32,000 nt of DNA from Candidatus Heimdallarchaeota archaeon (lineage in GTDB: Archaea > Asgardarchaeota > Heimdallarchaeia > Heimdallarchaeales > Heimdallarchaeaceae). The number at the start of each line of letters is the position of its first letter. Within the stretch, counting starts at the first letter, position 1. The position numbers and the translations under genes are program-made. Below the pieces are notes generated by a model. That model had not been told where the DNA came from, did not search any database, and worked only from the letters and a program-made list of their open reading frames with translations. Location: NCBI GenBank assembly GCA_030668875.1, contig DAOVER010000016.1:30001-62000 (forward strand), in the 5' to 3' direction. Positions 6,014-32,000 of this stretch are shown piece after piece.

Positions 6014-7435
6014 TCACATAATTTTTTGAGATTTTTCTCCCCAATTAACCAATCTTCTTTCCCCTTCTAGTTTACGTATAGAGGTAACATCTTGCATGAC
6101 TTCTAATGTTCCTCTGTAAGTACCAGAACTATCTCTAATCGCAAAGTAGCGTATGTGTACAAATTTTTCTCCCATATTTATCCAGAACCCTGCAACATCT
6201 TTTTGATCAGTTTTGAAAGCTTCAATAATTTCCATAACTTTGTCAAGACTTTTTGGTGGGTGGCATCTTTGGACTTTTCTACCAATAACACCTGGACTGC
6301 GGGGAAATATTCGTTCTTTAGTATCTGAGTAGTATATTACTTCCTCATTCTCATTAATGAAAGATACTTCAACTGGAAGATTAGTCATAATCAAATTGAT
6401 TTGCTCTAGAGTAAGTTTACCAGTTTGTACATCCAAGATATCTTCAAGCTGAGGTTTTTCTTCTACTTGATGAATTACTTCTGGAGTGACAGGTTTCCAT
6501 TCGTCTCCTGGGGTGACCCACGCAAAGCCTATCTCTTCCTCACCTTTTTTCACCCTTTGCCAATCTTGACTGGTCAACAGTTCTAAACTTGTTGGGAAGA
6601 GTATTGTTTCTTCTTTAAATATCATATCTTCTACTTGTTTAGTAAATTCTTCAACATCAATTTCGCTTCCTTGACGAATCAATTCTCGAACTTCATCATG
6701 TTTTGCCCACATTACTTGAGTTGGTCCTTCGAATTCCTTTTTCTCCAACATGGGAAACAGCTGATTTTCCAGTCTAGTATAGTGAAGCTCAATATCGGCT
6801 AGTTTTTGAACTAATTCTGGAGTTGGATTTTCTCTAATGCTTTTAATTAACTCTTCAGCAGCACGATTTTCTTCCATATAGGTATGTATTGGGTGACCTG
6901 GAGTTTCTTGAGGTGTCTGTTTTTTTTCCAATGTATCTTCAAAGATTCCTACATGTAAATCGCATAACAATGTGATTTGTTCAACAGTTAGCTCTCCAGA
7001 ATTGATCAATTCTTGTTCCATTGAAGCTATGTCTGTAGCTTCTACATCCCCTAGTATTTCTTTGAACCGAACTTTCAATGCAGATTTTTCCCCTCCTGCA
7101 TGAAGCTCTAGCACAAGAGCTTTAAGCATTTCACGCTTTCTTACTTGTTCATCTTCAAAACCACTTATACCTGTTGAACCAATTTGTATGTCCACTTTGG
7201 TTTCTGTTTGTTGTTCAATTTTGATTGAGAAAAAATCTACTATAGATTTAAGATCTTGATGAATGAGGTTTGCAACATCAGTCATTGTAGCTTTTCTACC
7301 CACAGTTTTACGAAGGATAGGGTTTTGAAAGCGTTTTAGAGTAGGATCTAATTCCGCTAATAGTTCCTCTAGAAAGGGAAATTTATCAATTAGATCTATA
7401 ATTTTTGTTGCTTCAGATATAATATAGTTTGACAC
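6014..7435 (-). CDS. DUF438-type protein (DUF1858 - DUF438 - hemerythrin-like - PAS_10)
   Basis: LCDLHV..F, TPGHPIHTYMEEN, HY.R.ENQLFP.LE, VMWAKHDE.R, MIFKEE.ILFP, RSPGVIGRKVQRCHPPKS, Y.GTLEV.QD. Confidence 0.88.
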   Translation of the reverse strand: MSNYIISEATKIIDLIDKFPFLEELLAELDPTLKRFQNPILRKTVGRKATMTDVANLIHQDLKSIVDFFSIKIEQQTETKVDIQIGSTGISGFEDEQVRKREMLKALVLELHAGGEKSALKVRFKEILGDVEATDIASMEQELINSGELTVEQITLLCDLHVGIFEDTLEKKQTPQETPGHPIHTYMEENRAAEELIKSIRENPTPELVQKLADIELHYTRLENQLFPMLEKKEFEGPTQVMWAKHDEVRELIRQGSEIDVEEFTKQVEDMIFKEETILFPTSLELLTSQDWQRVKKGEEEIGFAWVTPGDEWKPVTPEVIHQVEEKPQLEDILDVQTGKLTLEQINLIMTNLPVEVSFINENEEVIYYSDTKERIFPRSPGVIGRKVQRCHPPKSLDKVMEIIEAFKTDQKDVAGFWINMGEKFVHIRYFAIRDSSGTYRGTLEVMQDVTSIRKLEGERRLVNWGEKSQKIM

Positions 7436-7646
7436 AGTAAATCACTCTTGACATTTTGCGAACCATCAAATAAAAAACATATGGTTTGGTCAAAAATTTT
7501 CTGCAACTTATTAATTTCTTAGAAATACCATGATACTGATGACAAAGTAGTATGTCTGATAGAAACTGACTATGTAGCTTTCTACCAAATAATTATTCTT
7601 AAGTAAATAACACAAATTAATATACGACTTATTTTTTCTATTTTTA

Positions 7647-10166: not shown

Positions 10167-11273
10167 ATGGAGATGAAAATAAGTGAGCAAGAATCTCTGA
10201 TAAATCACACTCACTATAACAATACAGATTCCTTTGAGGAGAAAAAAGAAGAATCACTAACAGAGATAGATAAGAAAAAGAAGCGTTATTTGAGTATAGA
10301 TCTTTTTAGAGGACTAGCAATAGTAGGAATGGTTTTCGTAAATATCCTAGCTGAATTTGATAATACTCCTGATTGGTCTAAACACACAGTAGATTATGGA
10401 TTAACATATGTAGATTTAGTCGCTCCCTTCTTCATTTTCGCTATAGCTTTAACGTACAAGATGTCTTTTGATAGATATCTAAAAAGAGAAGGATACGTGA
10501 AAACTTATACGAAATTTGTTGTTCGTTATGGTGCATTAGTAGGTTTTGGATTTATGGGAAGCATAGGAACATTTGCTACTGATGGAACAAAATTTTCTTG
10601 GGGTGTTTTACAAGCTATAGGCTATGCAGGTATTTTTACTCTATTCTTCATTATTCTACCAAGAATTGTTAGATTTGTAATTGGTATAGGTACATTAGTA
10701 GCTTACCAATTCATTCTTATGATTACTGTTGAAGTTGAAGGTGTTTTTATCTCCTTAGCAGACTTGAATCTTCTAGACAGTCATGGAGGGGTCATAGGTG
10801 GGATTGGTTATGCAGCTCTGATGCTAATTGGCACTGCTATTATAGATGTTTTTAGTGAAAAAAGAAAGTTACCTATTCTCGTTAGTGGGATTGTCTTTTC
10901 GATAGTCGGAACAGCAGTTCATTTTATTTGGAAGTTCTGTGAAATTCCACTATATGGCGGAATATCTAAAGAGAGAATGACTCCTTCATATGTGTCTGTG
11001 GCAATGGGTTTAGGAGCAATATTGTTCTGGTTAATCTGGTATCTTTTCGACAAAAAAGAAATAACTAAAGACAAAAGTTACTTCCTTCAACCATTTGGAA
11101 GAAATGCATTTTTCTTGTACATTTGTCATCCGCTCTTAATTCTGTTAGCAACTCTTTACCTCCCTCAGAACAGTCATGTAGCTCTGGTGACATTTGTAGT
11201 TGTAATGAATGTAGGTATTATTTGGTTAATAGCTTTTATGATGGATAGAAATAAAATATACATAGTTCTCTAA
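10167..11273 (+). CDS. Heparan-alpha-glucosaminide N-acetyltransferase-like (DUF5009/DUF1624) membrane protein
   Basis: RYLSIDLFRGLAI..M.FVN, HT..YGLTYVDLVAPFFIF, WGVLQAIG, ISKERMTPSY, FGRNAFFLY; multiple TM helices. Confidence 0.85.
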   Translation: MEMKISEQESLINHTHYNNTDSFEEKKEESLTEIDKKKKRYLSIDLFRGLAIVGMVFVNILAEFDNTPDWSKHTVDYGLTYVDLVAPFFIFAIALTYKMSFDRYLKREGYVKTYTKFVVRYGALVGFGFMGSIGTFATDGTKFSWGVLQAIGYAGIFTLFFIILPRIVRFVIGIGTLVAYQFILMITVEVEGVFISLADLNLLDSHGGVIGGIGYAALMLIGTAIIDVFSEKRKLPILVSGIVFSIVGTAVHFIWKFCEIPLYGGISKERMTPSYVSVAMGLGAILFWLIWYLFDKKEITKDKSYFLQPFGRNAFFLYICHPLLILLATLYLPQNSHVALVTFVVVMNVGIIWLIAFMMDRNKIYIVL

Positions 11274-11351
11274 TCTTCATTTGATTATGTAGCTTAAAAA
11301 GAATAAGAAGTAATTCCAAGTATTAATATACTCATCAAAATTTGTCCTTTT

Positions 11352-12206
11352 ATGAAAGACAAAATTATCCTCGTTACTGGAGCAAATGCAGGAATAGGGA
11401 AAGAAACTGCTCTCAAGTTAGCTGAAATGGGAACTCAAGTTATATTAGTCTGCAGAAATGAGAAAAAGGGGATCAGTGCTCTTGAGGAGATAAGAGAGAA
11501 AACCAGTAATGATAATCTTGATTTAATGATTTGTGATTTTGCTTCTTTGAATTCAATTAATGATTTTGTGAAAAGTTTTAAGAAGAAATACAAACAACTT
11601 GATGTTTTAATTAATAACCATGGAGCTGTCTCAATAAGAAAGGCATTAACTGAAGATGGAGTTGAAACAACTTTTGCTGTTAATCATCTTGGTTATTTCA
11701 GTTTGACTTTACAACTTCTGGATTTATTGAAAACTAGCTCATATTCCAGAATTGTTAATGTAGCTTCAAGCTCAAATTACAGAGTTAAGGAATTGAACAT
11801 CACTGATTATAATTGGGATAAGAGAAAATACAAAATGATGGATGCTTATGGTGAATCAAAACTATACAATATTATGTTTACCTTTTTACTTTCTGAAAAA
11901 CTGAAAGATACAAACGTTACAGCTAATTGCCTCCATCCCGGTTATGTTAAAACTAATATTGGTTTGAATCACTTCTTGTTAAGAATGCTTCGCCCACTTG
12001 TAAAGGTGGGAGCAGTTTCCCTAGAAGAAGGTGCACAAACAACCTTACATTTAGCTACATCATCAGAGATGGAAGGAGTTACTGGAGTATATTATCACAG
12101 AATGAAACTAAGAGAACCAAATAAATTAGCTTTAGATCAGAAAGCTCAGCAAAAATTGTGGGATTTAAGTTTAGAATTAACTGGTTTAACTAAAGATTTA
12201 GTGTGA
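11352..12206 (+). CDS. Short-chain dehydrogenase/reductase (retinol dehydrogenase-like), intact copy
   Basis: TGANAGIG, LDVLINNHG (NNAG variant), RIVNVAS, catalytic Y-G-E-S-K, LHPGYVKT. Confidence 0.93.
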   Translation: MKDKIILVTGANAGIGKETALKLAEMGTQVILVCRNEKKGISALEEIREKTSNDNLDLMICDFASLNSINDFVKSFKKKYKQLDVLINNHGAVSIRKALTEDGVETTFAVNHLGYFSLTLQLLDLLKTSSYSRIVNVASSSNYRVKELNITDYNWDKRKYKMMDAYGESKLYNIMFTFLLSEKLKDTNVTANCLHPGYVKTNIGLNHFLLRMLRPLVKVGAVSLEEGAQTTLHLATSSEMEGVTGVYYHRMKLREPNKLALDQKAQQKLWDLSLELTGLTKDLV

Positions 12207-23443: not shown

Positions 23444-24316
23444 TTAACTCATTTTGAATATAGATAACTCAATTGAAATCAATATGCATGCGATAATGAA
23501 AGAACTAATCACGGCTGACCACTTGTGTTCCTTAAGTTTCGTATGTGAAATTCTATCCAGAAATGTAAGCACCTTGTTATAAGTAAGTATTCGAACGATC
23601 AAGAACAATAGTTGAAATACAGTCCCAATTGAAACAATAATCACATATTCAGGTATCGTACTTATGTAGAAAGATGATGAAACGATTAGAATTAGCAGAG
23701 TATATACAATATAAGTGAGATGAATTAACATAACTCTCCAAAAAGAATCTTTGGGAGATATATTTAGTAAAGGCCATACTAACCAGTTAAGTACAAAACT
23801 AATTAAAATCAGTAGTGTAAAAATAACTCCTAGAATTACAGGATGTACACCCTTTTCCAAAAGACTTCCCCAATCATTAGGATTATCAAAAAAAGGTTTG
23901 AGGAATACACTGTAACCATTTAATCCTTCCATTAAATACGCAAAACTTGAGGTTAGTAAAAATGGGAGAAGATATTGATTTCTGAAAAACACAGAATTAA
24001 AGTCATAATTGTCGTGGTAGCTATGCTGAAAATTGGTCCTGCTAAGGACACAAATACTTCATCTTGAGCTAGTAAAGGTGTTCCAGTATATGTCACCATA
24101 AAAAGGGTTAACTTCAATCCTAACATCAGGATAACCCTTGACTATGAGCGCAAGAGCATGACCAGCTTCATGTAAGAGAATATAAAGGCTAATAGAGAAA
24201 AAAACGAACCAAAAAACAACAAGCTACTCTTCAAAGTATCTTTTTTTTGTGGCAAAATGATTCTTTAGAAAAATTTCTGTATTTGTCTCTGTTTCACCTT
24301 TTTCTGTGTCATTCAT
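23444..24316 (-). pseudogene. M50-family (site-2-protease-like) membrane metallopeptidase, degraded
   Basis: ATG 24316; in-frame TAG at 24224-24226; ILLHEAGHALA (HExxH at 24158-24172); frameshift near 24095; EVFVSLAGP (VSLAGP at 24034-24051); second frameshift near 23993 into the 182-aa track ORF. Confidence 0.8.
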
Positions 24317-24366
24317 ATAGATGCTTAAGTTAAAGCACTTATAAGATCTCTATTTTATAAACCAAA

Positions 24367-24424
24367 CCTTGCATTCAGTTCTCCTTCTTCGAGTTTCCTG
24401 ACTATGTGAAAGGATTAGTGCAAT
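24367..24424 (+). repeat. 58-bp direct repeat, copy 1
   Basis: ccttgcattcagttctccttcttcgagtttcctgactatgtgaaaggattagtgcaat; 56/58 identical to 26449-26506. Confidence 0.95.
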
Positions 24425-24634
24425 ATGTCATTAGCAACAACATATAGGTGCTTGCAAAAAGTGTCAGAAATAAAATTGATAACCGCACATTACTTAACAG
24501 AGAAACCAGGGCAAGTATTATAACGAATAGCAAAAGAGGGGAGTTCAATAATCATTAAATTGTATGAACTACTAGGAGGAAGCATGTTACCCCCATATGT
24601 AGAAAGCAAACCTGTAGTTGAAACAGAGATCTAA
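24425..24634 (+). pseudogene. Possible winged-helix DNA-binding protein remnant
   Basis: MSLATTYRCLQKVSEIKLITAHYLTEKPGQVL*RIAKEGSSIIIKLYELLGG...; resembles a wHTH recognition helix and wing; internal TAA at 24521-24523. Confidence 0.35.
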
Positions 24635-24687: not shown

Positions 24688-26436
24688 ATGTTCTTCAGTA
24701 GCAAAATGAAGATTGGTTTAAAATCTATAATGTTCATAATATTTATTATTTCAATTCTATTTTCTTCTATAGTTTACTCGTCATTATATTCTGTGGAACA
24801 TAAACATGATAGTATACTAGCTCAAGTGTCATTAAAAGATTCCTTGATACTTGAAAATCATGATCCAATTATCATTAATAGTGATTCAAATTTAGATGCT
24901 TCAGGATTTCCTGGGAATGGAAATTATGCTGATCCTTACATTATAGAAAATTTTCACATAGTTACAGATGATTATTATTCCATCTCAATTTCAAGCACAT
25001 CAAAATATATTACTATTAGAAGCTGTTATACTGAATCAAAAAATTCAGGAATAAAAATTGATGATACAGTGAGTTTAAACACAGTATTGATTGAAAATAA
25101 TGAATGTAGAAATAGTGTCTATGGAATTAAGATTCGATCTTCCTCTTCAATTATTCAAAATACATGTATTAATAATACCTATGGTATTTCAATTAAAACT
25201 TCACCTAATTCAAAGGTTCATAATAATGAATGTTTAGAGAATAAAGTAATGGGAATAACAATTTCAGGTTCAACAAATTCTGAAGTAAAGAGCAATATTT
25301 GTTCAAATAATAAAAGAGAAGATGGAATTCATATTGACGATTCTCCTAATACAAGAATAGAAGACAATATTTGTGAGAATAATGGCTATAATGGGATTTG
25401 GCTTCGATTTTCTCACTCATCGATTATTTCCTACAATGAATTAACAAATAACGGGTTAACAATCTACGAAGATAATGTGGAGGATTATTTGTCTCACACC
25501 TTTGAAGGCAATAGCGTTAACAATAAAACTCTAGGATTTTTTGAATCCCAAAAGGATATCATACTAGATGAACCAATATATGGCCAAATATTCTTAATAG
25601 ATTGTGAAAATGTCATCGTGGAAAATCAAGAGATTTATGATGCTAGTATAGGAATTAAGGTTCTATATTCCAAGTTTGTAACGATTCGAAATAATATCTG
25701 CAATAAAAATTCTTGGTATGCAGGAATATATATTGATCTCTCTATCGGGTGCAAAGTCATTGATAATGAGTGTTTGTACAATGAAATGACCGGCATACGA
25801 ATCGCATCTTCATTAGATACAACAATAGAAAATAATCTTGTTGTCTATAATAGGATTGGAATTTCTATTGCTTATTCCTTTTTTGCAACAATTATAGATA
25901 ATCAAATACTAAATAATTCTTTTTCGGGATTAAGCGCATATGAAATTAATTCTTCTTATATTTGGAATAATACCTGTTTCAGGAATGACGCAGGAATAGC
26001 TATAGCTGCAACTTCAGATTGTGAAATTGTAGAGAATTTATTCTTAAACAACACATTACATGGTCTAAACTTAAGATACGAGACTTATAACAATACAGTA
26101 CATCACAATGCGTTTGTTGATAACAATATCAATGAATATTCTCAAGCTAAAGATGACGGTGAAGGTAACTTATGGTATGAAGTGAGTTCTGAGGAAGGAA
26201 ATTACTGGTCAAATATTGGACAAAATTATACTTATATGATAGCTGGGAAAGCAAATTCCACAGATCCTTATCCATTATATGAATCACCAATATCAATTGA
26301 ACTTCCAATACTACCTATTCCCCCAGTTATAGATACTGAAGAGGTAATTTTTCAATTCTATCCTATTTACGTAATAGGCTTATTGTTTGTGATCTATATA
26401 TTCAGGAAAAGAAGAAAAAAATGCTGCATTGACTGA
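24688..26436 (+). CDS. NosD/CASH parallel beta-helix surface protein with C-terminal anchor
   Basis: Signal/TM, HDPIII.SD....GFPGNG...DPYIIEN, many N.C..N..GI repeats, HHNAFVDN, QAKDDG..NLWY....EGNYWS, TM+RKRRKK tail. Confidence 0.88.
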   Translation: MFFSSKMKIGLKSIMFIIFIISILFSSIVYSSLYSVEHKHDSILAQVSLKDSLILENHDPIIINSDSNLDASGFPGNGNYADPYIIENFHIVTDDYYSISISSTSKYITIRSCYTESKNSGIKIDDTVSLNTVLIENNECRNSVYGIKIRSSSSIIQNTCINNTYGISIKTSPNSKVHNNECLENKVMGITISGSTNSEVKSNICSNNKREDGIHIDDSPNTRIEDNICENNGYNGIWLRFSHSSIISYNELTNNGLTIYEDNVEDYLSHTFEGNSVNNKTLGFFESQKDIILDEPIYGQIFLIDCENVIVENQEIYDASIGIKVLYSKFVTIRNNICNKNSWYAGIYIDLSIGCKVIDNECLYNEMTGIRIASSLDTTIENNLVVYNRIGISIAYSFFATIIDNQILNNSFSGLSAYEINSSYIWNNTCFRNDAGIAIAATSDCEIVENLFLNNTLHGLNLRYETYNNTVHHNAFVDNNINEYSQAKDDGEGNLWYEVSSEEGNYWSNIGQNYTYMIAGKANSTDPYPLYESPISIELPILPIPPVIDTEEVIFQFYPIYVIGLLFVIYIFRKRRKKCCID

Positions 26437-26448
26437 CATTGACTCTAT

Positions 26449-26506
26449 CCTTGCATTCAGGTCTCCTTCTTCGAGTTTCCTGACTAAGTGAAAGGATTAG
26501 TGCAAT
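26449..26506 (+). repeat. 58-bp direct repeat, copy 2
   Basis: ccttgcattcaggtctccttcttcgagtttcctgactaagtgaaaggattagtgcaat; starts 13 bp after the NosD-like stop codon. Confidence 0.95.
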
Positions 26507-26638: not shown

Positions 26639-27595
26639 TTGTTAAAAGCAGAAAATGTGTCTAAGACCTATCCTATGAATGGTGTAAGAGCTTTAGACAG
26701 TTTTTCTATCGATATTAAACCTGGAGAGATTATGGGGCTATTAGGGCCTAATGGTGCAGGTAAATCAACTTTTGTAAGAATTGCTGTTGGAGTTCTTGAT
26801 AGAGATTCTGGTTCATTGTCAGTTTGCGGATGGGATTCTGATTCAGAGAGAAAGAAGATATCAAATTTAGTTTCATGGATTCCTCAAGAGGGAACTTCTA
26901 AGATGATTCTAAATAGAACTGGTCGAGAGAATATAATCTATTATTCTTGGATAAGAGGTATATCTAGAAAAGAAACAGAAAGAAGAATTGATGAGATTCT
27001 TGAAAAATTAAACATTGAAAAAAAGATATTAAACAAAACCTACCGAATCATGAGTGGAGGACAAAAACAAATAACAAATATTATCAATGGTTTGATAATG
27101 AATGCAAAATTATTATTTTGTGATGAGATATCAGTAAGTATTGATCCGATTATTACTAAGTCAATTTATGATTATCTCAAAGAATACACTTCTAATGGTC
27201 GTTCTGTTCTTCTTACATCACAAAATATATCAGAAGTGGAAAATCTTTCAGATAGAATAGCAATAATACAAACTGGAAAATTAGTGGCACTTGATAAACC
27301 ACGAGAAATTTCTAAAAAAATACTTAAATATGAAATCATCGACTTAAGTTTTGAAAATAGCGTTATAAAAGGTAAGGATTTTTCTAGTTTCAATTTAGAA
27401 TTAGAACAACAAGACTATTTTCGATCAAAAGAGCTAAGTAATAATATTCTTCATATTAGATCCGATAACGCTAATAAATTGCTCAATTCTATCCTTGTTT
27501 TGCTAGAAAAATATTCCCTAAATCCTTCAATAGAATCTGGTAAAGCGAATCTTAGTGTAGCTCTTCAAATGCTGAAAAAGGAGGAGAAAAATTGA
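26639..27595 (+). CDS. ABC exporter ATP-binding subunit (DrrA/CcmA-like)
   Basis: Walker A GPNGAGKS, signature MSGGQ, Walker B LLFCDE; the H-loop position reads LLTSQN. Confidence 0.92.
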   Translation: MLKAENVSKTYPMNGVRALDSFSIDIKPGEIMGLLGPNGAGKSTFVRIAVGVLDRDSGSLSVCGWDSDSERKKISNLVSWIPQEGTSKMILNRTGRENIIYYSWIRGISRKETERRIDEILEKLNIEKKILNKTYRIMSGGQKQITNIINGLIMNAKLLFCDEISVSIDPIITKSIYDYLKEYTSNGRSVLLTSQNISEVENLSDRIAIIQTGKLVALDKPREISKKILKYEIIDLSFENSVIKGKDFSSFNLELEQQDYFRSKELSNNILHIRSDNANKLLNSILVLLEKYSLNPSIESGKANLSVALQMLKKEEKN

Positions 27596-28434
27596 GGACT
27601 TTCTATGCGAATTTCTGGAGAGAAATGAAATACAACCTTGGTCGAAGAGGTGTATGGATGGGAAGACTAGTAAATGTTACTGTCTCCATAATTACAGCAT
27701 TCGCAATGGGGATTATTTATTCTTTTAGTGCTGAAGCTCAAACAACTGTAGGAATAGCAAATGTTGGCTTGTTTCTCTTAACTGGTTTTTTCTTACAGTA
27801 TTTAGTTCTTTCAAGTGTTACAATAGCTCCTAATACTTTTTGGGGTGATATAAGAAGTGGATCTTTCGAATTCATCTTTCACTATGAATTTAGTATCTCT
27901 GAATATATTTTTGGAATTTACTTTGCTCAGTTTATTATAGACTTCGTTATTTCTTTGCCTTTTCTTATTGCAATTATTATCGTAGCAGCAGGACAATCAA
28001 CTCCAGCCATTCTCATCATCTCGTTTATTGGGTTCCTTATTTTTTCGTTCCTGTGTTTATTTTCTATTACAATGTTATACTCTTCTCTTTATGTTCTAAG
28101 TAAACAATTTATGGGTTATCATGGAGCTGTTACTTATATCGCTTATTTCATCTGTGGTGTCTATTTCCCTATTTTAGGATATCTTTCTCTCTTTGGAACA
28201 AAAGCAGGATGGGCGATAATTGGTGTAATTTCTATTCTCCCATATACGCAAGTATTTGACATCGCTAGATACATTATTTTCGGTCAAAATTATGTTCTTG
28301 CTTATCCTACTCTATGGCTAGCTTTTCTAATCATGATTTCTACCTCAGTTATTTTCTATGTCTTATCACTAATCATATTCAGGAAAGGTTTCAAAAATCT
28401 GAGAAAGGAAGGTTTCGCAGCTTACCGTTACTAA
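27592..28434 (+). CDS. ABC-2 type exporter permease
   Basis: About 6 TM helices; DIRSGSFE, FICGVYFP, ILPYT...DIARY; 4-nt overlap with the ATPase. Confidence 0.88.
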   Translation: MRTFYANFWREMKYNLGRRGVWMGRLVNVTVSIITAFAMGIIYSFSAEAQTTVGIANVGLFLLTGFFLQYLVLSSVTIAPNTFWGDIRSGSFEFIFHYEFSISEYIFGIYFAQFIIDFVISLPFLIAIIIVAAGQSTPAILIISFIGFLIFSFLCLFSITMLYSSLYVLSKQFMGYHGAVTYIAYFICGVYFPILGYLSLFGTKAGWAIIGVISILPYTQVFDIARYIIFGQNYVLAYPTLWLAFLIMISTSVIFYVLSLIIFRKGFKNLRKEGFAAYRY

Positions 28435-28505
28435 TTTTCTTACACAGAAAATTTAATATCAAGTTATACTACTTTCTAGAAAGAGTTGAATATCGAGGGA
28501 ATAAA

Positions 28506-29606
28506 ATGAATAAGGAAGAACAACCAATAACTCCTACATTACCTTACGTTTTTCAAACCAAAGTTACTCAACAAGGCATTATAACAATCCCCTACACTTT
28601 AAAATTAGATTTAGATAAGCATTATTTGTTCAATTTCCAACCTCTAAAAAGTGAAATCATATATTCCCAGGTTAAACAGATAAAACATTCAGGACAAAGA
28701 CAATATGTTTCTTGTCGAATTAAATCTCCTTTCTTGCAAAAGGGAGATGAAGTAAAGATTACCATAATCAAGGAATTTAAAGCTTCATCAGAGCTTACAT
28801 TTGATGATGATGAAGAGTATTCTCTCTTGTTTAACCAATCTGTTCGATGTTTATTTCTGTACTCTTTTCAAGAGAAAGATGAAATCTTGACTGCAGAGGA
28901 AAGCAAAGACTTTCTATGTGAGTATCCAAATTTCACTCAACAGGAGTTTATCAAAAACTCCCTTGATTTGCTTAGCAAGAAAAACATTTTATTTGAAAAA
29001 GAAGAAGGAGAATTCTTTGATATATTACGTTTTCAAAATTATGCTGTAATTAGGTTTGTTGGAACGAAAAGATTATTGAGTTTTGATATCCTTCAGCAAA
29101 AACCCTCAGAAGAGGCAAAAATTGCCTATGAAACACATATTCCATTTGTCTTCCTTGTTCTAACAAAGATTGATTACCTTCAATTTTTACTCTCTCAACA
29201 TATTAGAACTAGATTCAAACTCTTTCTAGATAAATTTCAAAGTGTATCATCATATCTACCTTATGTGATTAAGGAGTTTTCTTCACTTCTACAGAGTGAA
29301 ATATTTGAGATAATGACCAAGGCTGATGATAGTATAAGAAAATTTAACAGTCTTGATGATGTGAGATTCTGGTTCTTTATACCTGCTGAATATCATGATC
29401 TAATCAAAAAAATCCAGATGGATTTTTACTCAGGAAAGAAATTTGTAATAATAAACGAATTGATAGAATCAATTAAAACTAAAGATGGAAATCTTGAAGC
29501 AAAGCAACTCGTAGTTAATGCAATAGAATGGTTGTATAGGCACCAAGTGATAAATGTAAGAGAGATGGATGGAGAGAAAATAGTGGAGATGTATAAGATT
29601 GAATAA
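28506..29606 (+). CDS. Hypothetical protein with N-terminal AbrB/MazE-like swapped-hairpin domain
   Basis: ATG 28506 with gaggga upstream (track start 28314 overlaps the permease); TKVTQQGIITIP...L and LQKGDEVKITII match AbrB-type patterns; helical C-terminal region of unknown family. Confidence 0.6.
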   Translation: MNKEEQPITPTLPYVFQTKVTQQGIITIPYTLKLDLDKHYLFNFQPLKSEIIYSQVKQIKHSGQRQYVSCRIKSPFLQKGDEVKITIIKEFKASSELTFDDDEEYSLLFNQSVRCLFLYSFQEKDEILTAEESKDFLCEYPNFTQQEFIKNSLDLLSKKNILFEKEEGEFFDILRFQNYAVIRFVGTKRLLSFDILQQKPSEEAKIAYETHIPFVFLVLTKIDYLQFLLSQHIRTRFKLFLDKFQSVSSYLPYVIKEFSSLLQSEIFEIMTKADDSIRKFNSLDDVRFWFFIPAEYHDLIKKIQMDFYSGKKFVIINELIESIKTKDGNLEAKQLVVNAIEWLYRHQVINVREMDGEKIVEMYKIE

Positions 29607-30405
29607 ACAATATAAAAAATTAAATTCTCATGTTATTAGCTTCTATTCATATAGAGGTGGAACAGGAAAATCAACCGTCGCGTCGAACCTTGCTACAGTC
29701 TCTGCAAAAAAACACAAAACAATTCTCGTAGATTTAGATCTCTATTCTCCTCAACTAACATACATCTTTGAGAAAACAAGCAAGAATTACATCAATGATT
29801 ATCTGCACTCCTCGCTCTTCACATCTAAACATGCTAGAAATAGAATTGAAAGCTTAGATGAGGTGATTTGTGAAAGCTCGTTTGAAAACCTTGATCTTAT
29901 ATTAGCAAACCCTAAGATGTCTCTCACTGATAACACAATTTTGCATGATGAAGTAATTACAAAAAAAGTTTTTCCTTGCTTCCAACATATGATAGAATTA
30001 CTCAAAACCCAATATGAAGTAATAATCCTAGATTGCCCTGGAGAATTGAATTACTATACACTTAATGGAATAGCTGTAGCAGATAGAGCGGTAGCAGTAA
30101 GTATACCCACCATAGCTAATGTAAAGGGAATGATAGAATTATTGAAAATTTTTAGTTCTGCACTTCAAGGTAAAAAAACTGATATCATTCTGATGATGAT
30201 AACTCCAAGACCTTCAAAAAAGAAAATAGAGAAATTAGTAGAATGGAAACAAGAACTCGAAAAATTTGAAGTGGAAAATTATCTTTGTTTTGATTATTCA
30301 GAAAACATTGCTTATAGACATCAATTTGAAGATGACTTCTTTTATCTCCCAGAAGAGGAGGAGTATCAGAAATTGGAAGAATACCTGACTGCAATTCTGA
30401 AGTGA
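29599..30405 (+). CDS. ParA/MinD-family ATPase
   Basis: Deviant Walker A SYRGGTGKST, ILVDLDLYSPQL, Walker B IILDCPG; 8-nt overlap with the upstream gene. Confidence 0.9.
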   Translation: MNKQYKKLNSHVISFYSYRGGTGKSTVASNLATVSAKKHKTILVDLDLYSPQLTYIFEKTSKNYINDYLHSSLFTSKHARNRIESLDEVICESSFENLDLILANPKMSLTDNTILHDEVITKKVFPCFQHMIELLKTQYEVIILDCPGELNYYTLNGIAVADRAVAVSIPTIANVKGMIELLKIFSSALQGKKTDIILMMITPRPSKKKIEKLVEWKQELEKFEVENYLCFDYSENIAYRHQFEDDFFYLPEEEEYQKLEEYLTAILK

Positions 30406-31724
30406 CTAACATGGAACTCAAAACTCTGCTTTCGGTAAAGAAAAAGGATAAATGGATACATTATAATCTGATAAACCAAACAATGGTAAAAACTTCTCTT
30501 TCTCCAACAGAGTTAGATAGATCTCCTTCAGATATCAAAGAAGAGCTGTTGTATGGTACAGATAAAGAAATGCTAATAGAATCTCACAAGCTATATTATC
30601 AAAAAATAAAGAAGGAAATGATGAAGAAAAGAGAGTTGAATTCTCCTTTTCTATCAAGAAGTGAAGTTAATCTAACTCTATGGTATGATTGTAACTTTGA
30701 TTGTCCATATTGTTACCAACAAGAAGAATATTATGCTGGAGCAAAAGAAAGCGATAAAATCAATATAGAGAAGACCTTAGAATTCTTTAGAAATAAATCA
30801 AAAAATGATGAATTTCCTCCAAAAACTGTTGTTTTCATAGGAGGTGAACCTTTACTAAAAGGTAAGAGAAATAGAGATACTATAATAACACTAATGGGAT
30901 ATCTCAATGAACACTTTCCTGGAATTGAAATACACGTCATCTCAAATGGTTATCTTTTAGGTGAGTATGCTGAAACCCTTTCTAAATTCAAGGATTTGAA
31001 TTTCGTATTGACAATTACTCTGGGTTCTACAAGAAAAAACCACAAGTATGAAAGAATTCTCAAAACCAATAATTCAGTAGATACTTTTGAGCAAATCTTC
31101 GTAGGTATGAAGGAATTCAGAAAAAAAATTCCTAAGGGTTGGATTAATATTAGAATGAATTTTGCAAAGGATTACAGAGAAGTAGATGATACAAAGGAAT
31201 TGATGTATCTGATTAAAAAAGAAATACCAGATGTAAGATTTGAACTCTCTCCAGTAGTTTCATTTTCGAATCATCAAGAAATTGGCTTAGGGTTTTTCAA
31301 ATTGCTTAAGGATTTAATGTCAAATGAGGTTTTTTCTAAGTCCTTCGTAATGAAACTAAATGACAATCTATACTTCTTACTACGCAATTCAATTCCACAA
31401 CTAGAAAATAAGGAAATTTCATCAAAACCAAAAATATGCAATGCAGTTTCTTTTACAACAAACTATGATTTGTTCTCAGACTTCCAAATTCAACCTTGTG
31501 AGGATTTTAGATATTATAAGAGAATAGATGTGGATGATTTGAAAATATCAGATCTCTTCTTAGAATCTCTTGATAAGAGAGTAGAGCAATGTATAGATTG
31601 CCCTTTTTTTGTAGGTTGTATTTCAAATCCATGTAAAATAATAAAAAGAAAAACTATAGCGAAAAAAGTATGCTATGAAAAAGAATTATTACCACTCTTT
31701 CAAATAATTGAAGAATTTTATTGA
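30402..31724 (+). CDS. Radical SAM/SPASM-domain enzyme with probable N-terminal RRE (candidate peptide maturase)
   Basis: CNFDCPYC (CX3CX2C), GGEPLL, SNG; C-terminal 7 Cys: KIC, QPC, then CX2CX5CX4CX12C; N-terminal about 70 aa with WIHYNL..QT; GTG overlaps the ParA stop. Confidence 0.9.
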   Translation: MTNMELKTLLSVKKKDKWIHYNLINQTMVKTSLSPTELDRSPSDIKEELLYGTDKEMLIESHKLYYQKIKKEMMKKRELNSPFLSRSEVNLTLWYDCNFDCPYCYQQEEYYAGAKESDKINIEKTLEFFRNKSKNDEFPPKTVVFIGGEPLLKGKRNRDTIITLMGYLNEHFPGIEIHVISNGYLLGEYAETLSKFKDLNFVLTITLGSTRKNHKYERILKTNNSVDTFEQIFVGMKEFRKKIPKGWINIRMNFAKDYREVDDTKELMYLIKKEIPDVRFELSPVVSFSNHQEIGLGFFKLLKDLMSNEVFSKSFVMKLNDNLYFLLRNSIPQLENKEISSKPKICNAVSFTTNYDLFSDFQIQPCEDFRYYKRIDVDDLKISDLFLESLDKRVEQCIDCPFFVGCISNPCKIIKRKTIAKKVCYEKELLPLFQIIEEFY

Positions 31725-31730
31725 ACTATA

Positions 31731-31750
31731 AAAGGGAATATATTTAAAAG
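31731..31750 (+). promoter_or_regulatory. Putative archaeal BRE-TATA upstream of the small peptide gene
   Basis: Purine run aaaggga followed by atatatttaaaa, about 30-40 nt before ATG 31780; SD aaggtg at 31771-31776. Confidence 0.4.
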
Positions 31751-31779
31751 AGCGAGTGTCATTAATGTAACAAGGTGCT

Positions 31780-31968
31780 ATGATGGGAAGAAAAGATAAG
31801 AAAACAGAAGAAAACACAGCATTTGAAGTGCTTTTACGAAATACCAGTGGTGTAAACCCTGGTATTGAAACAGTTTATGATCCTCCAGGTGATCTGCCAG
31901 GAAATTGTAACCAATCTACAGCAAATCTTTCTGTTCGATCCTCAGTCTGTGATATTTTACTGATGTAA
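31780..31968 (+). CDS. 62-aa peptide, candidate RiPP precursor
   Basis: Good SD; charged leader (RKDKKTEENTAFEVLL) then a Gly/Pro/Asn/Ser-rich region with Cys43 and Cys57; immediately downstream of the rSAM/SPASM gene. Confidence 0.7.
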   Translation: MMGRKDKKTEENTAFEVLLRNTSGVNPGIETVYDPPGDLPGNCNQSTANLSVRSSVCDILLM

Positions 31969-31980
31969 TAAGGTGGTACT

Positions 31981-32000
31981 ATGAGGAGAATTGGTGTTTA
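31981..32000 (+). CDS. Start of a further co-oriented gene (MRRIGV...), truncated by window edge
   Basis: aaggtgg SD at 31969-31975 then ATG 31981, 12 nt after the peptide stop. Confidence 0.55.

Follow-up and report, generated by a model that had tools for sequence, protein, structure and literature searches.

The 3' end of the window (the whole stretch of DNA that was analysed, 32,000 nucleotides (nt) long, C3:30001-62000 of contig C3 in a 3.2-Mb Candidatus Heimdallarchaeota archaeon assembly of 99 contigs and 92% completeness) carries six complete open reading frames (ORFs), all of them on the plus strand in the ORF list of the window. They encode, among others, an ABC transporter, a radical S-adenosylmethionine (SAM) enzyme and a candidate precursor peptide, and with the genes that follow they constitute a peptide cassette of the radical-SAM/SPASM kind that is very divergent and includes three accessory proteins restricted to the lineage. 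The product is probably a RiPP, a peptide made on ribosomes and modified after translation. The features of the locus, with protein lengths in amino acids (aa), are the following:

26639..27595, plus strand: ATP-binding subunit of an ABC transporter, 318 aa, DrrA-like, from matches to ABC_tran and the drrA subfamily
27592..28434, plus strand: ABC-2-type permease, 280 aa, with about six hydrophobic segments; 4-nt overlap with the ATPase gene
28506..29606, plus strand: 366-aa three-domain protein, from matches of its structure model; 71-nt gap after the permease gene
29599..30405, plus strand: ParA/MinD-like P-loop ATPase, 268 aa, from matches to AAA_31, CbiA and ParA in Pfam; 8-nt overlap with the gene of the 366-aa protein
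30402..31724, plus strand: radical-SAM enzyme, 440 aa, from its match to Radical_SAM in Pfam; 4-nt overlap with the ParA-like gene
31783..31968, plus strand: candidate precursor peptide, 61 aa (62 aa if translated from ATG 31780), from homologous small ORFs; 55-nt gap from 31724 to 31780
31991..32000, plus strand: first 10 nt of the gene for an all-helical protein of about 563 aa, which ends at C3:63683 (L003 5992-7683)
C3:63931-66072 (L003 7932-10073), beyond the window: secreted 713-aa protein with a Big_7 Ig domain, from its match in Pfam

A preliminary description of this DNA had reported six co-oriented genes that overlap by 4, 8 and 4 nt or are separated by 71 and 55 nt, and the ORF list bears this layout out. 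A seventh gene was said to begin within the window, and it does so at TTG 31991 (22-nt gap); the ATG at 31981 (12-nt gap) opens an ORF of six codons that ends in TAA. Indeed, one relative has an ATG at the position homologous to TTG 31991. The cluster does extend past the window as described, and the downstream genes that were retrieved encode the helical protein of about 550 aa and the secreted Ig-domain protein. Contig C3 runs 4 kb beyond the window and ends 24 nt after the gene for the 713-aa protein.

The gene order of the cassette was found again in four other assemblies (loci L005, L006, L019 and L016), which argues that the arrangement is not due to chance. The radical-SAM enzymes of these loci are 85% (L006), 81% (L019), 47% (L016) and 39% (L005) identical to the window copy. 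L006 and L019, both from JGI metagenomes, encode the ABC ATPase, the permease, the protein of about 366 aa, the ParA-like ATPase, the radical-SAM enzyme, the small ORF and the protein of about 550 aa, and in L006 the secreted protein comes next, with 84% identity. In L016, the cassette genes are present as far as the start of the protein of about 550 aa. L005, the most distant full cassette, possesses two tandem peptide genes (11200-11714; 67/69 and 65 aa) located 3' of its 541-aa helical-protein gene, not 5', and these are followed by a secreted protein with 36% identity over 665 columns. Wherever the assemblies reach, the order ABC ATPase, permease, 366-aa protein, ParA-like ATPase, radical-SAM enzyme and small peptide(s) is kept. 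The ABC ATPase is the first cassette gene in all four of these loci, and since the genes 5' of it vary among loci, the cassette begins at this gene.

Several of the cassette proteins are exceedingly rare. Strong matches to the 366-aa protein occur in 3 of the 24 genomes of the genus (G000, G022 and G039), with no credible match in the remaining genomes of the 399 searched in the phylum, and a profile search recovered six representatives of its family among 1.84 billion cluster representatives. Among 5.8 billion proteins, the ParA-like protein has only nine relatives at E<=1e-8, and the 563-aa helical protein only two further relatives. The radical-SAM enzyme has five close relatives, beyond which E-values drop to 1e-13 and worse. 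The 366-aa, ParA-like and helical proteins belong to tiny families almost confined to the cassette, and the counts imply that only a few related archaea of sediments carry the cassette, as an accessory trait. The sequencing runs that contain this DNA are marine-sediment metagenomes, possibly including its own source, and the named genome records with two of the related loci are "Candidatus Heimdallarchaeota archaeon isolate YT1_002" and "uncultured archaeon". A tblastn search of the whole assembly with the cassette proteins returned no second peptide and no second helical protein.

The 440-aa enzyme belongs to the radical SAM superfamily, with 52.6 bits on the Pfam model Radical_SAM PF04055 (cut-off 29.5, E 7.8e-14); Fer4_12 is its only other Pfam match. 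As the preliminary description had read from the letters, the translated ORF contains a CX3CX2C motif (C97, C101 and C104) and a SPASM-like tail of seven cysteines (346, 366, 397, 400, 406, 411 and 424), the last five with the variant spacing CX2CX5CX4CX12C. A SPASM domain is expected to follow the pattern CX9-15GX4C ... CX2CX5CX3C ... C, in which two auxiliary 4Fe-4S clusters are ligated. In the window enzyme, the first pair is CX19C, with no G-x4-C of the usual kind, and the last motif has one additional residue (CX2CX5CX4C). Neither the whole enzyme nor its C-terminus alone matches the SPASM models PF13186 and TIGR04085. The seven C-terminal cysteines are, however, invariant within the enzyme family, and hhalign pairs C346, C366, C397, C400, C406, C411 and C424 one-to-one with the seven SPASM cysteines of Clo7bot/TIGR04463-like relatives (probability 99.8%, E 4.4e-28, residues 85-425).

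The highest NCBIfam scores of the enzyme are those for CefB (54.6 bits, cut-off 600), Clo7bot (54.3, cut-off 600) and PapB NF047865 (52.6, cut-off 340), with lower values for TIGR04463 (41 bits), TIGR03974 (CteB/ScfB; 39.6 bits against 425) and TIGR03942 (anaerobic sulfatase maturases; 39.4 bits against 349.45). Beyond the family, its weak relatives are full-length Clo7bot/TIGR04463/CefB-like proteins, and this outgroup scores best on TIGR04463 or Clo7bot. CteB (5wgg) is the sole PDB match by sequence, at E 0.0022. An AlphaFold2 (AF2) model was obtained with an overall pLDDT (a predicted value of the local distance difference test) of 62.6; its barrel fits many radical-SAM structures at Z 11-16 in VIA-align, the best being ChlB (PDB 9gm3; Z 15.8, root-mean-square deviation (rmsd) 4.3, 284 residues aligned) and the anaerobic sulfatase-maturating enzyme (anSME; Z 15.2, rmsd 4.3, 279 aligned). 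Foldseek ranks CteB first, followed by anSME and SuiB. The enzyme therefore sits among the SPASM/twitch peptide-modifying enzymes, in no curated family. Sulfatase maturases and cofactor enzymes are not its nearest recognisable relatives, which are radical-SAM/SPASM RiPP maturases.

Compared with CteB (the SCIFF maturase, PDB 5wgg/5why), PapB, Clo7bot and CefB, the window enzyme is alike in its length of about 440 aa, in an additional N-terminal domain before CX3CX2C, in seven C-terminal cysteines that align with the SPASM ligands and in the small Cys-containing peptide encoded beside it. It differs from these CteB-type maturases in scoring about 40-55 bits against their cut-offs of 340-600, in an N-terminal domain of no detectable similarity to theirs, in the CX19C spacing that lacks G-x4-C and a CX2CX5CX4C motif where they end in CX3C, and in a peptide with one or two cysteines rather than a Cys-rich core. 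With anSME (PDB 4k36-4k39) and ChlB (9gm3) it shares the radical-SAM barrel and a C-terminal region of SPASM- or twitch-like kind, whereas the alignments cover only residues ~78-440, the C-terminal part of the model is of low confidence and the window offers no sulfatase context.

The RiPP recognition element (RRE) is a PqqD-like N-terminal element of three strands and three helices that binds the leader peptide. The enzyme indeed carries an N-terminal extension of about 85 aa, which is conserved in the family. In the AF2 model, strands at residues 9-14, 17-22 and 28-31 are followed by helices at 35-40, 43-49 and 55-80 (pLDDT 70-83), and this beta-beta-beta-alpha-alpha-alpha order is the one feature that suggests an RRE. 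In the L019 orthologue of the enzyme (6205-7542; P0003), five residues are duplicated in tandem (YNLIN YNLIN) within this domain's second predicted strand.

The small ORF that follows the enzyme gene was initially described as a 62-aa peptide of leader/core-like character. The ORF and its leader-like N-terminus are confirmed; the peptide probably comprises 61 aa, starting at ATG 31783, because the relatives begin with MGRKD and because the spacing to a GGTG Shine-Dalgarno sequence favours the second ATG. Pfam contains no match to it. Homologous small ORFs occur at each of the five loci whose downstream sequence is available, six in number as L005 has two in tandem, and each of these loci encodes the invariant cysteine. 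Alignment of the six peptides reveals five invariant positions (G23, I28, D37, C42 and S50) and a charged N-terminal segment that includes the hydrophobic motif x-[VI]-[LI]. A Pro/Gly/Asp-rich stretch precedes Cys42, and in the window peptide Cys42 and Cys56 are located in the C-terminal third.

The peptide ORF is uninterrupted at all five loci, down to 25-30% identity. The ratio of nonsynonymous to synonymous substitution rates (dN/dS) is 0.33-0.47 between the window peptide and its near relatives and 0.19 between L006 and L019, while its dN is higher than in the flanking genes by a factor of 4-5, with the quickest change in the C-terminal third, as is seen in RiPP cores. An ORF that is constrained and yet evolves fast fits a precursor with a variable core, and does not amount to strong proof of coding. 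Finally, the predicted complex of enzyme and peptide scored 0.59, the best control reaching 0.00, with runs sharing at least 27% of contacts and a partner pLDDT of at least 38. Of 80 solved complexes, 58 attain the mark set for such predictions, as do 2 of 110 mismatched pairs; with a score of 0.60 or under, only 7 of the 80 attain it, along with both passing mismatches. The prediction lends weak support to the pairing of enzyme and peptide.

The ATP-binding subunit of the transporter matches ABC_tran in Pfam at E 1.5e-24, and its best NCBIfam model is the drrA subfamily (E 1.1e-51, 175.9 bits, which is below the cut-off of 312). The window permease has no Pfam match; hydropathy indicates about six transmembrane segments, and the only family match is a weak one of the L005 orthologue to ABC2_membrane. 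The preliminary description had named an ABC exporter: a probable DrrA-type ABC-2 transporter is part of the conserved cassette, and export would be its presumed role. It would fit an exporter or a self-protection pump.

The 366-aa protein has no match in Pfam, NCBIfam or PADLOC. Its AF2 model (pLDDT 72.5) comprises three domains. Residues ~11-95 resemble the RIFT/cradle-loop barrel PhS018 (2glw; Z 10.1, rmsd 2.4, 82 of 92 residues aligned in VIA-align) and also a SpoVT/AbrB-family regulator in AFDB. Residues ~108-272 resemble the Lokiarchaeal Roadblock-Longin protein 8yqg (Z 9.9, rmsd 3.1, 132 aligned) as well as Lst4 and FLCN, with FLCN/SMCR8 longin domains and NPRL2 entries among the AFDB matches, while a winged helix makes up residues ~280-366 (Z ~9 in VIA-align). 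The earlier label "AbrB-like" consequently suits residues ~11-95 of the structure model, about a quarter of the protein; the rest is longin/roadblock-like and winged helix. The likeness to PhS018/SpoVT-AbrB barrels and to the Asgard Roadblock-Longin protein is one of fold in the N-terminal and middle domains, whereas at the sequence level there is no family match, and the combination of the three domains was not encountered among the named proteins searched.

The neighbouring ATPase was correctly assigned to the ParA/MinD fold family, with 77 bits on AAA_31 (cut-off 27, E 1.8e-21), further Pfam matches to CbiA and ParA, and MipZ among the family matches. A deviant Walker A motif is defined as KGGxGK[ST] with an N-terminal signature lysine. 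Here the motif reads SYRGGTGKST (RGGTTKST in L018, a metagenomic copy discussed below), and the signature lysine is an arginine in all eight family members, so that the protein departs from the signature motif while retaining the fold. A role as an Mrp/NBP35-type Fe-S cluster carrier is ruled out, as the sequence contains no CXXC motif. The genes for the 366-aa and ParA-like proteins are always adjacent and overlapping, and an overlap of the ParA-like with the radical-SAM gene is seen in the window, in a paralogous module on contig C20 and in L018. ParA/MinD ATPases with their ParB and MinE partners are alike in the P-loop fold and in translational coupling to a putative DNA-binding partner; they differ in that the window protein has Arg for Lys, a partner unrelated to ParB or MinE, and a place in a peptide-maturase operon. 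The 366-aa and ParA-like proteins may constitute an ATP-driven switch and its partner, serving transcription, a maturation scaffold or something unrelated.

The 563-aa helical protein has no Pfam match. ESM Atlas gives it TPR-like features, at a recognition value under the reliable range and hence as a weak lead. Orthologues are encoded in L006, L019 and L005, that of L005 with 35% identity over 536 aa. In the 713-aa protein, a signal peptide and a stalk rich in Pro are accompanied by a Big_7 Ig domain and, internally, by a hydrophobic hairpin rich in Gly and Ala, and the contigs that encode it (those of the window, L006 and L005) all stop in or just past its gene. A PADLOC search with all cassette proteins returned generic ABC, P-loop and viperin-core similarity and no system.

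The paralogous module on contig C20 (L004 1-3505, minus strand) encodes counterparts of three window proteins, namely a protein of 371 aa (32% identity), a ParA-like ATPase (43%) and a radical-SAM enzyme (33%). It contains no ABC genes, and a divergent gene for a 169-aa tandem winged-helix protein is located upstream; a homologue of this protein also adjoins L018. The C20 radical-SAM gene is cut by the end of the contig, four other assemblies (L022-L025) break inside the same gene, and the C-terminal half of the enzyme was not found by tblastn of the whole assembly.

The GC content is ~31% across the window, and the cassette shows no compositional break. A scan for bacterial promoters and terminators gave results at chance level, such a scan being ill suited to archaea. 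Upstream, a 58-nt direct repeat occurs at 24367-24424 and 26449-26506 (56 of 58 positions identical, 2082 nt apart). The two copies flank a gene for a NosD/beta-helix surface protein (24688-26436), with no recombinase between them, and the second ends ~130 nt 5' of the start of the ABC ATPase gene. At 23444-24600, the minus strand has only short ORFs in the ORF list, and the related cassettes do not share this upstream region.

The reading of the cassette that is best supported, and to which we assign a probability of roughly 0.6, is that it makes and exports a radical-SAM-modified RiPP. We favour this reading because the synteny is conserved, because the peptide ORF is conserved and was once duplicated, and because the enzyme shows affinity to SPASM RiPP maturases. 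An exported modified peptide had also been proposed in the preliminary description; the proposal stands as the preferred one, while the type of modification, the removal of the leader and the export are what we infer. In such a pathway, a leader of ~40 residues would dock on the N-terminal domain of the enzyme, and the SAM cluster would generate a 5'-deoxyadenosyl radical, leading to hydrogen abstraction in a core of ~20 residues. Cys42, bound at an auxiliary cluster, could then form a thioether of sactionine or ranthionine type with a nearby residue, the regions of the invariant Asp37 and Ser50 being candidate acceptors. The DrrA-type ABC-2 transporter would export the product or shield the producer, and the helical protein may bind or process the peptide. 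Together, the 366-aa protein and the ParA-like ATPase may form an ATP-driven switch, with a regulatory or scaffolding role in the pathway. Sactipeptides and ranthipeptides are defined by a Cys sulphur linked to the alpha, beta or gamma carbon of a core residue; the scores of the enzyme lie beneath the cut-offs of the curated maturases of both classes.

Archaeal SPASM radical-SAM thioether chemistry has a characterised precedent in CrpC (TIGR04463) of Methanococcus voltae, which has a predicted RRE and installs ranthionine crosslinks on the neighbouring Cys-rich protein CrpA (PMC13692751). It is the only characterised archaeal SPASM thioether enzyme that we found. Judged by sequence, the window enzyme is a distant cousin of the TIGR04463 group: both are archaeal radical-SAM enzymes of SPASM type, and the outgroup of the window enzyme scores best on TIGR04463 or Clo7bot. 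They differ in that the window enzyme reaches just 41 bits on TIGR04463 and its substrate would be a peptide of ~61 aa with one or two cysteines as opposed to a large repeat protein. Furthermore, the Crp cluster as described comprises three genes, and ABC, ParA-like, longin-domain and helical proteins are not described there.

A number of observations weigh against a RiPP pathway. None of the curated RiPP-maturase models in NCBIfam is reached by the enzyme, every score being far under its cut-off, and residues 1-90 and 325-440 searched separately have no meaningful match in Pfam or NCBIfam. The SPASM region of the AF2 model (residues 355-432) has a pLDDT below 50. As to the N-terminal extension, earlier described as RRE-like, it is present and has the strand and helix order of an RRE in a model of medium confidence, but neither sequence nor profile searches (Pfam, NCBIfam and hhalign) recover an RRE: when the N-terminal 86 residues of the family are compared by hhalign with those of Clo7bot-like relatives, the probability is 1.5% (local) or 0.3% (global), and structural alignments of the enzyme begin at residues ~59-86, leaving this domain out. 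With no N-terminal profile similarity and with alignments that start there, the RRE is no more than suggested. The peptide of L016 has no second cysteine, and the differences among the peptides fall nearly evenly on the three codon positions (22/18/25), a weak coding signature. The cassette contains no protease gene. The secreted Ig-domain protein is as syntenic as the peptide and could be the true client. On one short contig, the 366-aa/ParA pair is followed by a convergent gene with no radical-SAM gene adjacent, which makes the tie of this pair to peptide maturation uncertain. Finally, the sequencing runs listed as containing the locus include no RNA run.

The accessory proteins allow a more far-reaching version of the RiPP reading, namely that the cassette represents a new archaeal class in which a divergent SPASM enzyme needs an NTPase switch, composed of the Arg-variant ParA-like protein and its longin partner, together with a large helical protein, to install an undescribed crosslink. 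We consider this a tentative and rather unlikely proposal, and place it well below the general reading.

It is unlikely that the 366-aa, ParA-like and radical-SAM proteins form a regulatory, segregation-like or conflict/defence module, in which an NTPase switch would act on DNA or a membrane and the enzyme would yield a small-molecule or nucleotide product. Such a module would accord with the C20 paralogue and L018, where the triple occurs with no upstream ABC genes and, in both, with the divergent tandem winged-helix regulator, as well as with the 366-aa/ParA pair that once lacks an adjacent radical-SAM gene. The patchy distribution of the 366-aa protein (strong matches in 3 of 24 genomes of the genus and none credible elsewhere of the 399) is typical of accessory or conflict genes, and prokaryotic viperin models are matched weakly and in a generic way. 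The viperin likeness is, however, confined to the radical-SAM core and weaker than or equal to that of RiPP maturases, and viperins lack the seven-Cys SPASM tail that is present and aligned here. Furthermore, PADLOC recognises no system, and the peptide and exporter are conserved in the full cassettes.

Slightly harder to sustain is the idea that the enzyme modifies a protein, whether the secreted Ig-domain protein or another cassette protein, and that the small ORF is regulatory or incidental. The Big_7 protein does follow the cassette in the window contig, in L006 (84%) and in the distant L005 (36% over 665 columns), the related archaeal CrpC acts on a large protein (PMC13692751), and the codon-position signature of the peptide is weak. 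Yet the peptide ORF is kept open at each of the five loci, even where identity is as low as 25-30%, retains invariant residues and is duplicated in L005. The secreted protein is not Cys-rich, and its signal peptide would take it from the cytoplasm, where the enzyme works. The complex test, moreover, weakly favours the peptide (0.59 against 0.00).

Very improbable, finally, is an anSME that converts Cys or Ser to formylglycine, as the automatic JGI name 'AslB' on two homologues, the second Foldseek rank and the VIA-align fit (Z 15.2) would have it, since the TIGR03942 score is lower than those of several RiPP maturases, none of the five cassettes has a sulfatase gene, anSME lacks the ~85-aa N-terminal domain, and inspection of the alignment finds no (C/S)-x-(P/A)-x-R sulfatase motif in the peptides.

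A survey of archaeal RiPPs lists only lanthipeptides as isolated products; the RiPP clusters with radical-SAM genes that it reports across archaea, Asgard lineages among them, have products that are uncharacterised (PMC12144867). In the literature on SPASM enzymes with ParA-like proteins and on RiPPs of Heimdallarchaeia and Asgard archaea, we found no account of a pathway with this gene set or its accessory proteins, and no characterised RiPP from Asgard archaea.

The 61-aa peptide and the 440-aa enzyme represent a small, testable system from the lineage closest to eukaryotes, at a time when characterised archaeal RiPPs are still few, and the enzyme is distant from every curated family. The 366-aa protein couples a longin/roadblock-like domain with a SIMIBI-class ATPase partner. 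If the accessory proteins act in maturation, they would extend the known range of RiPP machinery; otherwise they would stand by themselves as a new module of an ATPase and its partner. Should the 366-aa and ParA-like proteins indeed work as an NTPase switch, an Asgard lineage would have a pairing akin to the GTPase modules that longin domains regulate in eukaryotes.

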